From a virus (taxonomy: Duplodnaviria > Heunggongvirae > Uroviricota > Caudoviricetes), in IMG/VR virus record IMGVR_UViG_2778261417_000009: a stretch of DNA of 4,734 nt; one strand, written 5' to 3'. Below the pieces are notes generated by a model. It made no database searches. It was not told where the DNA came from and worked only from the letters and a program-made list of their open reading frames with translations. Of this stretch, positions 41 through 4,734 are shown in pieces. Made by a program: the position numbers and the translations under genes. Every line of letters begins with the position of its first letter. Within the stretch, counting starts at the first letter, position 1.

Positions 41-553
41 GTGATAACAGATGTCTGGAAATATAGGGGCAAATCCAATAGTGCAGGAAAGTTACGCTAT
101 TCGTTTAAGGAGGTTTCAGCAGTAAGCCTGAATGGTGTTGCCGGAGGTAACGGTTTTTGTATCGACAGTTTTGATATTCAGTTCGATAACAAACTCCAGA
201 CACAGCGTTGTATCGGGACTGGCTCGCCTTATGCAGGAGCAAATATTCCGACTACTTTTACACCGTCCGGTACGGTGACGCTTTCATGGTCTAAAGCCGC
301 GTGGGAAATCTGGAGTAAAACACTGACTGGAGAAACAGTTCCGTTCAGCTTCACGCTTTCGAATGGAGAGGGGGCATACACTTTCAGTTTCCCGAAGGTT
401 CAGGTGTCAGGTGAATGGCCTGATGGGGGTAATACTGACATTATCCAGGTTCAATTGAGCATTACCGCAGCAGATGAAGCACCTACGATAACCAGAAAAA
501 AATGCTCCCCGACTGCCGTGATCGCAAAAGCCAGTGCTGATGCGATTAGTTGA
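41..553 (+). CDS. Candidate major tail (tube) protein, ~170 aa; start codon uncertain (GTG at 41 immediately after an in-frame TAA at 38-40)
   Basis: Open frame 41-553 from the six-frame track. Position immediately upstream of the chaperone and tape measure genes matches the conserved order major tail protein - chaperone - tape measure. The Gly/Ser/Thr-rich, beta-strand-like composition (e.g. GTVTLSWSKAAWEIWSKTLTGETVPFSFTLSNGEGAYTFSFPKVQVSGEW) fits small tail tube proteins. No internal Met exists, so the start must be GTG 41 or another non-ATG codon, with no clear Shine-Dalgarno upstream. The call rests on synteny, not on recognised motifs. Confidence 0.5.
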   Translation: MITDVWKYRGKSNSAGKLRYSFKEVSAVSLNGVAGGNGFCIDSFDIQFDNKLQTQRCIGTGSPYAGANIPTTFTPSGTVTLSWSKAAWEIWSKTLTGETVPFSFTLSNGEGAYTFSFPKVQVSGEWPDGGNTDIIQVQLSITAADEAPTITRKKCSPTAVIAKASADAIS

Positions 554-565
554 TTTTCCGTTATT

Positions 566-592
566 CCCCCTGTGGTACTGCACTACAGGGGG
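566..592 (+). promoter_or_regulatory. Strong hairpin (11-bp stem, 5-nt loop) in the tube-chaperone intergenic region, overlapping the chaperone Shine-Dalgarno
   Basis: CCCCCTGTGGT (566-576) pairs with ACTACAGGGGG (582-592) with one G-U pair; loop ACTGC (577-581). No U-tract follows on either strand, so it is not a typical intrinsic terminator. The 3' arm contains the GGGGG that is the only Shine-Dalgarno candidate for ATG 602. Confidence 0.4.
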
Positions 593-601
593 ACGCATTG
601 A

Positions 602-1063
602 ATGAGGTTATGGATGTTTATTCTTAATCAGAAAATTATCACCGGTGGAGAACGCTGGTTTACGCCAATGAAGGACTTAAAACCTGTAGACGGGTTAAAA
701 CTGTTGGTGGCAAGCAGCGATAACGATCAGTATCGCTCCCGTAATGCATTAATCCGTCGTCACATTGAGAAAATGGATGCCAGTTTGCACGTCGGAACGA
801 AGGAGTTTGATATTTCAAAGGTTTCCGAGGTAGATTCTGTTGATGATTTACTCATTGATAATGCCGCTCGTTATCTGCTGAAAGACTGGAAAGGGGTTGG
901 TGAACTGGTTAATGGTGCTGAGGTTGCACTGGAATATACGCCAGAACGAGGGATCGCGCTGCTTAAGCAGAATCCAGAGTTGTACTGGCAGATCCTTGCA
1001 GAAGCAGCCAGCATCGCCCAGGGTAAAGAGCAGCAGAAGCAGGATACGATAAAAAAGCCATAG
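602..1063 (+). CDS. Tail assembly chaperone, short (zero-frame) product, lambda gpG analogue
   Basis: 153-aa ORF lying between the candidate tube gene and the tape measure gene. It ends in TAG at 1061-1063, one codon after a canonical slippery heptamer, with an overlapping open -1 frame. Purine-rich Shine-Dalgarno (GGGGG, 588-592) sits 9 nt upstream of ATG 602. Alternative starts at ATG 614 and ATG 668 cannot be excluded. Confidence 0.7.
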   Translation: MRLWMFILNQKIITGGERWFTPMKDLKPVDGLKLLVASSDNDQYRSRNALIRRHIEKMDASLHVGTKEFDISKVSEVDSVDDLLIDNAARYLLKDWKGVGELVNGAEVALEYTPERGIALLKQNPELYWQILAEAASIAQGKEQQKQDTIKKP

Positions 1064-1371
1064 CCGCCCAGCGGTGGTTATCGGAGTTCGGGGGAGAAAG
1101 GGGGGAAAAGGCAAGATGGAAGCGAGAAAAACTCAGGTTGCCACCGATACCGGAACCAGAAATAGACCCGGTGCTTAAGGAATTGTTGTACGCCTATTCG
1201 GTAATATCCCGTGCCCGACGTTATGCTGGAATGACCGGGGTGCCTTTGCCTTTATCTCTGACAGAGATAAATGAATATTTAGCCACTCATCCGGTATTGA
1301 TTGAGCGCGATGAGTTTGAAGCAGTGATCTTTGCACTGGATGACCAGTATTTTCAGGAGCAGTGTGTGTAG
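602..1371 (+). CDS. Tail assembly chaperone, long product made by -1 programmed ribosomal frameshift at 1051-1057 (lambda gpGT analogue); predicted ~256 aa (152 aa zero frame + 104 aa from the -1 frame, 1057-1371)
   Basis: The zero-frame codons AAA (1052-1054) and AAG (1055-1057) sit in the heptamer A AAA AAG (1051-1057). The -1 frame is open from 1027 to the TAG at 1369-1371. The only start the ORF track finds for this frame is a TTG at 1138 with no Shine-Dalgarno, so independent translation is unlikely. The arrangement matches the conserved chaperone frameshift found upstream of tape measure genes in long-tailed phages. Confidence 0.6.
1051..1057 (+). other. -1 programmed ribosomal frameshift slippery heptamer A AAA AAG
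   Basis: Read directly from the sequence: ...ACG ATA AAA AAG CCA TAG in the chaperone frame. The heptamer is identical to the classic E. coli dnaX slippery sequence. An AGGA (1041-1044) lies 6 nt upstream and a short GC-rich stem (about 1063-1077) begins about 6 nt downstream; both are possible stimulators. Confidence 0.65.
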
Positions 1372-1494
1372 TTGTTAATTACGTACACTCTGTTACAGAG
1401 ATGTGATGGTGTCTTTAATTAAATCGATGATGCTCCTGGAGAAAAGCATTGCGTGGCCTCGTAATCGCTATATCTACTATTATGTCGCCTGAAA

Positions 1495-1517
1495 CCCACT
1501 TCGGTGGGCTTTTTGTT
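1495..1517 (+). terminator. Candidate rho-independent terminator (or attenuator) immediately upstream of the tape measure gene
   Basis: CCCAC (1495-1499) / UUCG tetraloop (1500-1503) / GTGGG (1504-1508), followed by CTTTTTGTTGT (1509-1519); the upstream AAA (1492-1494) can pair with the U-tract. The stem is short (5 bp), so strength is uncertain. Confidence 0.45.
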
Positions 1518-1534
1518 GTCTGGAGTTTTAATAA

Positions 1535-4500
1535 ATGGCAGAGCAAACCTCGCGTCTCGCAATAATTATTGATAGCACTGGAGCAAAAAATAATGCTGAC
1601 AATCTGACCTCCTCATTAGTCAAAATGACGCAGGCCGGGGAAACTGCTGCAAATAGCGCAGGGAAAGTGACTAAGGCAACAGAAGATGAGAAGAACGCGC
1701 TCGCAAAATTAAAAGCAGCTATTGATCCAGTTGGTGCCGCAATTGATACTGTCGGTCGACGCTATTCTGAATTAAAGAAATTTTTCGATAAAGGGCTTAT
1801 TGATAAAGAAGAATATGAATTTCTTGTCCGTAAACTTAATGAAACCACAGAGGAATTGAGCGGGGTTGCGCAAGCGCAGAGAGAAGCCGAGAAGGCCGGA
1901 AAACTTGCTGCCGCCCAGCAGGAATCGCAGGCTCAGGCCTTTCAAAGAATGCTGGACAAGATCGACCCTCTGGTTGCGGCGCTAAGAAATCTTGAACAAC
2001 AGCAGGATGAACTTAATGCTGCGTTTGCATCCGGGAAAATAAATGGTTCTCAGTTTGAGAATTATAGCCGAAAAATACAGGAAACACGGCGAGAGCTTAC
2101 CGGAGAGGCTCAGGCAGAGCGAGAAGCAGCAAAAGCGCATGATGAACAGGTTGCTGCTTTGCAACGTCTGATTGCTCAACTTGACCCTGTCGGAACTGCT
2201 TTTAATCGTCTGGTAGAACAACAGAAACAGCTCAATGAAGCAAAAGCTAAGGGGATGCTCTCTCCTGAAATGTATGAGGAACTTTCTGGAAAACTTCGTG
2301 CTATGCGGAGTGAGCTTGAGGTTACTCAATCTCAATTAAGCAAAACCGGAATGTCGGCAAAACAAACGGCTTTTGCTATGCGCATGTTGCCTGCACAAAT
2401 GACGGATATTGTTGTTGGGTTGTCCACTGGTCAGTCGCCTTTTTTGGTGTTAATGCAGCAGGGCGGCCAGCTAAAAGATATGTTCGGTGGGATTGGCCCG
2501 GCGATCAAAGGTGTTGGTTCTTATGTGCTGGGATTAATTAATCCTTTTACCCTGGCCGCAGCAGCCGTTGGCGTCTTAGGGCTGGCTTACTATAAAGGCT
2601 CTCAGGAGCAGGACGAATTTAATAAATCTCTTATTCTTACCGGAAATCAGTTGGGGACAACCAGCGGGCAATTGGGCGATATAGCTCAACGTGCCGGGAA
2701 TGCGGCTGATTCGACAACTGGTGCTGCGGCGGCAGTATTAAATCAGCTTGTGCGTTCGGGAAAGGTAGCGAGCAGTTCGCTGGAGCAAGTGACGACAGCG
2801 ATAGTAAAAACGAGCGAAGTAACAGGAATATCAACCGAACAACTGGTTAATGACTTCAATGAAATTGCAAAGGATCCTGTCAGTGCCATATCAAAACTTA
2901 ATGATCAGTACCATTTTCTGACACTTGCGACTTATAACCAGATTAAGGCGCTACAGGATGAAGGGAACCAGCAGGAGGCCGCCCGCATTGCGACAGAAGA
3001 ATACTCATCTTCAATGATCCAGCGCACCAACCAGATTAAAGAAAATCTTGGTTATCTTGAGACTGCATGGAAAGCTGTCGCAGACTCCGCAAAATGGGCA
3101 TGGGATTCCATGCTGGATATTGGCCGTGAGGCCTCCCTTGATCAAAAAATCTCAGATGTTCTCCGTCAAATTGATGAAATAGAAAAAAATACCCGACCCG
3201 GAGTTTTCGGGTTAGGTGGCATTGGAGATGGCGGAGCTCAAAATAAAAGGCTGGCACGATTAAAGCAGCAATTGGGCGTACTTCAAGCAGAAAAAATTGC
3301 TCAGGACGTCCTAAATTCATCAATAAACGATTACAACAAGCGACAACAGGAAGGAATTGAACTCAGACAGAGAGCAGATGCCTTTTCAAAACAATATCAG
3401 ACCCGGGAGCAGCAGAGAGCTAGTGAACTTGCAAAACTGGAAAAGCTAAAGAGTCAGTATTCAAAGGAAGAATATAATAATTTTATCGCTCAAATAAATG
3501 AGCGTTATAAAGATCCAAAGCAACCAAAGGCGAAAGGTTATTCGGATGATGCTGCCCAACGAATGATTGATCATCTGAATCAACAGAATGCGTTACTAAG
3601 TTCACAAACTGAATTAACCGTTAAATTAAGTTCCTCTGAACAGGAACTGGTTAAGTGGCGTCAGCAGATTGCCGACCTGGAGTCACGACCGTCATCGAAA
3701 TTAACCCAGGATCAGAAATCGCTTCTCTTACACCGGGAAGAAATAACCGCGTTGATGGAGAAAAATGTTGCGATTGAAAAAAATAACAGGCTAATCAAGG
3801 AATCCGCCGAAATAGCTGCATGGCGTGATTCATTGCAGGCTTCGATTGATAATCGTCAACAGGGGTATGATATTCAGATTGCTGGTTATGGGGTTGGCGA
3901 TAAAAATCAGCAACGCCAGCAGGAATTACTGCGGATTGAACGTGAATATAACAATCAGCGTCTGCAACTTGAACGTGACTATGCAGATAAATCCCGTGGG
4001 ATGTCAAATCATGTTTTTCAGGAGAAAATGCAGGCTCTGAATGATGCTCTGGAACGAGAAAAAGAAATTGTCAGACAGAAAAACGAGCAGCTCGATATTC
4101 AGGCAGGAGACTGGGTTAGTGGTGCCTCCCAGGGATTCAATAACTGGCTGGATGACACTAAGGATATCAGTGAGCAGATAAAATCAACCACGACTCAGAT
4201 GTTTGATGGAATGACCGATGCGCTGGGTGATTTTGTCACGACAGGCAAGGCAAATTTTCGTTCTTTCGCTACTTCCGTGATTTCGGATCTTAGTCGAATA
4301 GCATTAAAGGCTTCAATTACTGGGATTTTCGACAGCATTAGTAACAGTTCTTCTGGGGGGATTTTAGGAACTATCGGGAGTGCTATTAGTAAATTTATTC
4401 CGAATGCAAAGGGCGGTGTTTATGAGTCTCCGTCATTGAACACGTATTCGAACGGTATTTATGATTCCCCGCAATTTTTTGCTTTTGCAAGAGGGGCTGG

Positions 4501-4609
4501 TGTTTTTGGTGAGGCTGGTCCGGAAGCCATTATGCCATTAACACGAACTTCCGATGGTTCTCTTGGTGTCAGAGCTATTAATAGTAAAAGTGGTAATGGA
4601 GGCGGGTAA
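1535..4609 (+). CDS. Tail tape measure protein, lambda gpH family, 1024 aa
   Basis: Single 3075-nt ORF with GGAG (1522-1525) 9 nt upstream of ATG 1535. The N-terminal ~270 aa are alpha-helical, Ala/Glu/Lys/Gln-rich repeats. A conserved hydrophobic block ([39 protein letters not shown]...) follows, which as I recall closely matches lambda gpH ([12 protein letters not shown]...GGQSPWLILLQQGGQVKDSFGG). Further matching blocks are [14 protein letters not shown]...WDSMLDIGR and the C-terminal TTQMFDGM...FRSF region. The product ends in a Gly-rich tail (GNGGG). Its size and position after the frameshifted chaperone are as expected for a tape measure protein. Confidence 0.93.
1697..2350 (+). repeat. 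Three tandem ~70-80-aa protein-level repeats within the tape measure N-terminus (diverged at the DNA level)
   Basis: The IDP/LDP motif recurs at residues 63-65, 143-145 and 216-218. Each unit has the pattern L-x-(K/R)-(I/L)-DP-(V/L)...G-x-I...(Y/F)-E...E-T-x-x-EL-x-G-x-AQA-x-REA-x-KA, e.g. [25 protein letters not shown]... / [25 protein letters not shown]... / [26 protein letters not shown]... Confidence 0.6.
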
Positions 4610-4734
4610 TGACTCCAACTTACTGATAGTGTTTTATGTTCAGATAATGCCCGATGACTTTGTCATGCAGCTCCACCGATTTTGAGAACGACAGCGACTT
4701 CCGTCCCAGCCGTGCCAGGTGCTGCCTCAGATTC

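Follow-up and report, generated by a model that had tools for sequence, protein, structure and literature searches.

What occupies the 163 nt that separate the tail chaperone from the tape measure gene in a Rac-type tail operon, and why does this untranslated stretch end in a terminator-like hairpin? The locus lies in a window of 4,734 bases (the whole stretch of DNA analysed here). A first-pass annotation had placed the gap between the end of the chaperone's frameshift extension at 1371 and the start of the tape measure gene at 1535, and these coordinates hold: the untranslated junction spans 1372..1534 on the + strand. The same annotation had set the gap against the tight packing expected at such a junction. 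We found this premise to be weak. The term moron was first applied to gene 15 of phage HK97, which is located between tail chaperone and tape measure (PMC3594210), at exactly the same junction.

The window is a fragment of the tail module of a Rac-type prophage. Positions 78-4605 matched complete Escherichia coli genomes with 99.8% identity (megablast), and the gene order in the matched genomes is tail tube, ydaY, a 'hypothetical protein' and a 1077-aa tape measure gene. In E. coli K-12 the same stretch lies within the cryptic prophage Rac, as ydaY (b1366) and ynaA (b1368). Insertion sequences bound the fragment on both sides: positions 1-77 of the window come from one end of an IS2 copy, and their homologous stretch carries the annotation IS3-like element IS2 family transposase, while positions 4606-4734 are the end of an IS1 copy. 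The loss of the 5' part of the tube gene and of the 3' part of the tape measure gene follows from these insertions. Only 78-553 remains of the tube gene, and the listed open reading frame 41..553 begins inside the IS2 end. The tape measure gene (1535..4606, + strand) is cut at its 3' end by IS1, which supplies the last residues and the stop codon of the resulting 1024-aa reading frame; in intact relatives the product has 1077 aa. Among the complete E. coli genomes of the collection, none carried both IS insertions at these sites, and we found nothing relevant in the literature on ydaY and ynaA.

YdaY, encoded upstream of the gap, is the tail assembly chaperone G, which starts at 602 or 614 and ends at 1063. 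A slippery heptamer, A_AAA_AAG (1051..1057, + strand, read in the G frame), leads by a -1 shift into the T extension (1057..1371, + strand), which comprises 104 codons up to a TAG at 1369-1371. Of 109 distinct relatives, 105 have the heptamer AAAAAAG at the corresponding position. The T extension is 63-81% identical to the T extensions of relatives, with 46 invariant columns, and the mechanical reading frame 1138..1371 shares its frame. Beyond the TAG, the T frame remains open up to a TAA at 1420-1422, a hint that the first stop is premature and of recent origin. Despite a suggestive picture in a MAFFT alignment, the similarity of 1372-1422 to the longer T tails of relatives L072-L075 was not above that of shuffles, and we rejected this candidate. 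In RefSeq, as seen for the regions 6627-7294 of the intact Rac-like prophage L001 and 3622-4455 of the K-12 locus L003, the start of ydaY is set at an internal ATG, and the T extension appears as a separate 'hypothetical protein' or, in K-12, is not listed; the programmed -1 frameshift at A_AAA_AAG is left unannotated.

We compared the junction across related loci, which were sampled as T-extension homologs in viral contigs and in one genome per species, and in each of them we located the end of T and the first codon of the tape measure gene. The 243 related loci yielded 129 distinct junctions, from hosts that include Escherichia, Shigella, Klebsiella, Citrobacter, Serratia, Pectobacterium, Pantoea and others. 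The length of the chaperone-tape measure junction ranged from 38 to 3887 nt. Junctions of the Rac type measured 163-165 nt, and junctions of 38-39 nt were found in some Klebsiella, Scandinavium and other elements (the L077 group, L090, L186 and L194). All junctions that were neither Rac-type nor 38-39 nt long contained one to several genes, belonging to cargo families such as Ail_Lom (outer membrane porins), Phage_pRha (Rha regulators), SocA_Panacea, zinc ribbon membrane proteins and lipoproteins. The range of lengths and the unrelated cargo genes identify the junction as a hypervariable cargo slot, in line with one option raised by the first-pass annotation, that the gap is the scar of a module junction; we read the window's 163 nt as such an accessory-gene slot standing empty. 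The chaperone-tape measure junction is thus a place to seek cargo, including surface proteins, toxin-antitoxin pairs and exclusion genes. Examples of cargo-bearing junctions are L096, L072, L092, L004 and L088. In L096, from Citrobacter pasteurii, a SocA/Panacea-domain antitoxin is followed by a 142-aa reading frame without a Pfam match, and the two may form a toxin-antitoxin pair. A consensus scan of two cargo-bearing junctions found no sigma-70 promoter on the + strand.

Near its 3' end, the gap of the window contains a terminator-like hairpin (1492..1508, + strand). This element consists of an A-run foot at 1492-1494, a stem of CCCAC (1495-1499) paired with GTGGG (1504-1508) and a UUCG loop (1500-1503), and it is followed by the U-rich tail CTTTTTGTTGTC (1509..1520, + strand). 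Our scan matched CCCAC-TTCG-GTGGG at 1495-1508, then CTTTTTGTTG, which confirms the GC stem, UUCG loop and U-tract that the first-pass annotation had described near the end of the gap. Four of the five stem pairs are G-C, and five of the first eight bases of CTTTTTGTTG are T. The Shine-Dalgarno sequence of the tape measure gene, GGAG (1522..1525, + strand), lies 9 nt before the ATG at 1535, which is directly preceded by an in-frame TAA. The predicted energy of the hairpin was -8.7 to -9.6 kcal/mol, with z between -0.1 and -1.9 depending on the flanks included. By its sequence features, the element qualifies as a candidate intrinsic (Rho-independent) terminator. Supplementary tables of Term-seq in K-12 list no 3' end near the homologous positions (approximately 1426414-1426440), an absence of little weight, since K-12 does not express the late genes of Rac.

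We judged the hairpin to be real from its conservation among relatives and not from statistics on the window, in which five terminator-like sites were found against 4.6 +/- 2.2 in shuffles, a number not above chance. The first-pass annotation had singled out conservation in related elements, in advance, as a point on which its reading would turn, and there the hairpin is kept, with many different stems, in support of its interpretation: a GC stem with a loop of 3-8 nt and a T-run occurred within the 60 nt that precede the tape measure start in 124 of the 129 distinct junctions, a count that exceeds the number of independent events because the loci share ancestry. When distinct last-60 sequences were the unit of counting, 81 of 85 had hairpin and T-run, and the four misses were one-mismatch variants. 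The stem ended 17-27 nt upstream of the tape measure ATG. The background on this strand of these loci was 0.5-0.9 such motifs per kb, so the chance of finding one is roughly 3-5% per 60-nt window. The 55 distinct hairpins fell into at least eight stem families, among them CCCAC/GTGGG (Rac), CTCGC/GCGGG or GCGAG, CCCGC/GCGGG, GCCGC/GCGGC, CCCGG/CCGGG, GGCCCCGC/GCGGGGCT and CCCAG/CTGGG. Given the number of stem families and host genera, neither chance nor simple inheritance is likely to be the full explanation. A loop-anchored tabulation, which is partly circular in that the hairpins were chosen as paired, showed several pair types per stem position. MAFFT followed by RNAalifold on 81 junction sequences returned four pairs and -0.25 kcal/mol, from an alignment in which stems and loops of unequal length had put the structures out of register.

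The sequence that follows the stem is conserved more strictly. In the 81 distinct junction sequences, the columns of the T-run were invariant or at least 90% conserved, GGA was invariant and the final G was present in at least 90%; invariant columns occurred in the T-run and GGAG only, and the stretch from the T-run through GGAG was the most conserved non-coding stretch of all. The empty junctions of 38-39 nt consist of a stop codon, the hairpin, the T-run and GGAG, and nothing else. To which side of the slot the hairpin belongs was indicated by 127 pairs of junctions with an identical hairpin core and different cargo length, which we compared with the tape measure start codon as the anchor. 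Over the 40 nt upstream the median identity was 0.35, as for unrelated sequence, and over the 60 nt downstream, which run from the ribosome-binding site into the gene, it was 0.82. These results show that the hairpin belongs to the tape measure flank and that cargo has been swapped upstream of it.

Much of this arrangement is already known from HK97, and the window is a new example of it that does not overturn current understanding. In the HK97 record (NC_002167), positions 8398..8422 are annotated as a putative terminator, ACCCGC-TATCA-AGCGGGT followed by eight T, 12 nt before the tape measure gene. HK97 and the window therefore share the succession of a chaperone stop, inserted DNA, a GC hairpin with a T-run and a tape measure gene about 12-25 nt further on, and several stems of the Rac-like family are similar in kind to ACCCGC/GCGGGT of HK97. 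HK97 and the window differ in that the HK97 slot holds a 62-aa gene, which encodes the superinfection exclusion protein gp15, whereas the slot of the window holds none, and the HK97 proteins belong to another phage lineage than those of the Rac-like family. In HK022, which lacks gene 15, the junction is 19 nt long and has no hairpin, indicating that in the HK97/HK022 pair the terminator came with the moron. The Rac-like family departs from this pair in one respect: its hairpin persists where the junction is empty and goes with the tape measure flank.

The HK97 layout was reportedly described in 2000. A moron, in the sense of Hendrix and Juhala, is an inserted unit of promoter, gene and terminator that separates genes found side by side in related phages. 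The gap resembles such a unit in being extra DNA (163 nt, against 38-39 nt in some relatives), and perhaps also in having a terminator-like hairpin at its 3' end and in its lower GC content (0.40, against 0.45-0.50 in the flanking genes), a difference that comes mainly from a 51-nt AT-rich 5' segment with a GC content of 0.31. It is unlike a moron in that it contains neither a gene nor a promoter, and in that its hairpin co-segregates with the tape measure flank and not with any particular cargo. With gene and promoter both missing, the gap of the window is not itself a moron.

The explanation that we prefer, and consider moderately probable, is that the gap is a gene-less moron slot in the tail operon of a Rac-type siphophage, closed by a terminator-type hairpin that belongs to the tape-measure side. 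In the window itself, where IS2 and IS1 bound a prophage fragment, the element is most likely a relic. The proposed slot would explain the unannotated gap in the Rac prophage, which in E. coli K-12 lies between ydaY and ynaA. We infer termination at the hairpin, read-through of it and the purpose that it serves as follows. RNA polymerase lacking a Q-like modification, which could have started at a promoter of the cargo or at another upstream site in the lysogen, would stop about 20 nt short of the ribosome-binding site of the tape measure gene, and as a result the tape measure and distal tail genes would be silent in the lysogen. Late transcription modified by Q would pass the terminator, and the tape measure protein would then be translated from its own GGAG and not by coupling. 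By analogy with G and GT of lambda, few ribosomes should frameshift into T, so that the tape measure gene would need a ribosome-binding site of its own, and the tolerance of the junction for insertions probably stems from this independent translation.

Read-through of this kind, which the first-pass annotation had offered as one reading beside an RNA stability or processing element, calls for an antiterminator, and a candidate is present in an intact relative. In an intact Rac-like prophage (L253 11328-11870, minus strand), the gene in the position of Q, which lies upstream of those for lysis and structural proteins, encodes a DUF1133 protein. This protein matched the Pfam family Phage_antitermQ with 26.1 bits, at a cut-off of 26, and DUF1133 may be a divergent family of Q-type antiterminators. 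As in lambdoid Q antitermination, such a protein could override internal terminators; unlike a lambdoid Q system, the window contains no regulatory genes. Insulation of the tape measure gene from cargo would need cargo to be transcribed independently, and we do not claim such transcription, given that no promoter was called in the cargo junctions inspected.

A strong rival, compatible with the moron slot and in our estimate possible, though a good deal less than probable, is that the hairpin is a core element of the late operon during lytic growth, acting as a partial attenuator, as a barrier to 3' exonucleases or as both. Tube and chaperone messages would then exceed those of the tape measure and distal tail genes, and the cargo slot would be a by-product. 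In support of this, the tube-chaperone junction also has a conserved GC hairpin, of which we found 77 distinct variants, mostly with a T-run and with GGAG right after it. The conservation of this hairpin at a junction without a cargo slot points to a role in the late operon that goes beyond cargo insulation. UUCG hairpins with T-runs also follow the minor head and major capsid genes of an intact relative, and the hairpin before the tape measure gene is kept in the empty 38-39 nt junctions, whereas the HK022 junction has none. SPP1 offers a parallel, since its late gene clusters are likewise delimited by intergenic stem-loop terminators (PMC6316719). The Rac-like family resembles it in that terminator-type stem-loops follow its genes for the minor head protein, the capsid and the tube, and one precedes its tape measure gene; host and phage lineage are different. 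Two points weigh against this rival. Q-antiterminated late transcription, which the Q-like gene suggests, should largely suppress termination, and the tube-G hairpin of the Rac type has no U-run, so the two hairpins may differ in mechanism.

In the window, the hairpin between the tube stop (553) and the chaperone start has 12 pairs (565-593; CCCCCTGTGGTA-CTGCA-CTACAGGGGG). Its predicted energy was about -22 kcal/mol (z = -3.3), and no U-run follows it. The UUCG hairpins with T-runs of the intact Rac-like prophage L001 lie at 1629-1648 and 3727-3740, directly after the minor head gene and the gene for a P22-type major capsid protein. From its sequence, the late operon appears to be punctuated by terminator-like elements, and those before the tape measure gene and at the tube-chaperone junction suggest a tuning or insulating role in the expression of tail genes.

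The moron slot and the late-operon role can also be combined. The hairpins between tube and G and between GT and tape measure may both be selected core parts of the operon in this Enterobacterales siphophage family, and not baggage of the cargo, that set the ratio of tube, chaperone and tape measure messages through transcript amount or stability, with the one on the tape-measure side doubling as a cassette boundary; we regard this bolder proposal as rather unlikely, if worth stating. If it were true, the hairpin before the tape measure gene would be the fixed right-hand boundary of the slot, and possibly a landing site for recombination. Defence and surface-modification genes would be swapped through the slot, and a hairpin retained in empty junctions, unlike in HK022, would be its signature. 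The family-wide retention of terminator-like hairpins around the chaperone cistron is the part that might repay experiment.

Several features of the window itself would fit a neutral leftover, either the terminator of a deleted cargo gene or a chance hairpin, with no present function in the window's lineage. Base 1509 of the window is C, a minority allele found in 9 of 46 Rac-type haplotypes, and the window also has the minority base T1521. The majority allele has the tail TTTTTTGTTG, in which T at 1509 gives most haplotypes a longer stem and U-run. As a result, the hairpin of the window is among the weakest of the family (-9.6 kcal/mol, compared with a family median of -12.5 kcal/mol), and the C interrupts its U-run. 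Motifs of this kind occur in the window at the rate of shuffles, as noted above, and a stem-breaking substitution, G1508T, is present in 4 of 46 Rac-type haplotypes. The window is moreover a dead fragment, bounded by IS2 and IS1. A neutral leftover is nevertheless improbable. Hairpin and T-run are found in about 96% of distinct junctions, with at least eight stem families in many genera and with cargo-free junctions included, and most Rac-type haplotypes have the stronger allele, at -12.5 to -13.5 kcal/mol.

We also considered whether the gap might be a miniature moron that encodes a small RNA, or a 28-aa peptide (1406..1492), with a terminator of its own. In favour of this, the reading frame for the peptide stops 2 nt before the hairpin stem, and the gap is not more variable than a neighbouring coding region: over the 46 Rac-type haplotypes, 14 of 163 columns vary in the gap and 32 of 308 in the T extension, a similar rate. 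Only 5 of the 14 variable columns lie within the 123 nt upstream of the hairpin; most of the variation concerns the hairpin loop, the first base of the tail and the base that precedes GGAG. This low variation could, however, reflect one recently shared recombination block. The reading frame has no Shine-Dalgarno sequence, and its ATG is lost in 8 of the 46 haplotypes (G1408 to A or T), so we rejected it as a gene on the grounds of its unconserved start codon. The other reading frames listed in the gap, of 38-47 aa, are mechanical only. A consensus scan of 1372-1534 found no sigma-70-like site on the + strand, and no acceptable pair of -35 and -10 elements could be seen by eye, which agrees with the earlier statement that neither a convincing sigma-70 promoter nor a reading frame is visible in the gap.

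The suggestion that a search of RNA families might reveal a structured RNA was not borne out. A scan of 1000-1700 on both strands against Rfam 15, at a permissive threshold, gave no match at the gathering score, and the best matches (CRISPR-DR46, MIR5643 and isrB) reached 15.8-18.2 bits against thresholds of 35-94, with E values of 3-6, the level of chance. The fold of the whole gap was not better than that of shuffles (z = -1.2). Its AT-rich 5' segment (1372..1422, + strand) contains an imperfect inverted repeat, 1375-1388 against 1409-1422, with a fold of -11.7 kcal/mol that was not significant (z = -1.8). The remainder, up to the foot of the hairpin, is an orphan spacer (1423..1491, + strand), which has no conserved reading frame, promoter or homolog beyond Rac-type junctions.

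Sequence comparisons of the gap likewise found no counterpart in any other context, a further point against an encoded RNA or peptide. When the 120 nt before the hairpin were compared with all other junctions (blastn-short), matches fell in the hairpin only; tblastx against cargo gave no match below E = 0.01; and blastn searches of phage and plasmid collections (E <= 1) returned Rac-type junctions only, or none. A miniature moron is on these results very improbable. We also rejected the idea that the gap is a remnant of a Lom-type upstream region, for which Smith-Waterman scores lay below the shuffle mean (z = -0.2 to -0.9). For the preferred explanation of a gene-less slot, we conclude from the sequence that the slot is apparently empty or decayed in the lineage of the window.

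That the hairpin and U-run act on translation of the tape measure gene, as a U-rich enhancer or by pairing with the ribosome-binding site, seems to us barely credible: the near-fixed distance from the ATG and the strict conservation from T-run to GGAG would suit such a role, but GGAG never lies within a stem in the predicted folds, the stems change freely while GGAG stays constant, so that no conserved alternative pairing is evident, and what is conserved is the full architecture of a terminator, with A-run, GC stem, short loop and U-run.

One other site in K-12 lies close to the junction. A supplementary table of a 3'-end mapping paper (eLife 2021) contains an antisense site on the minus strand inside ynaA, at 1426769 of NC_000913.3, approximately 315 nt downstream of the K-12 counterpart of window position 1535.
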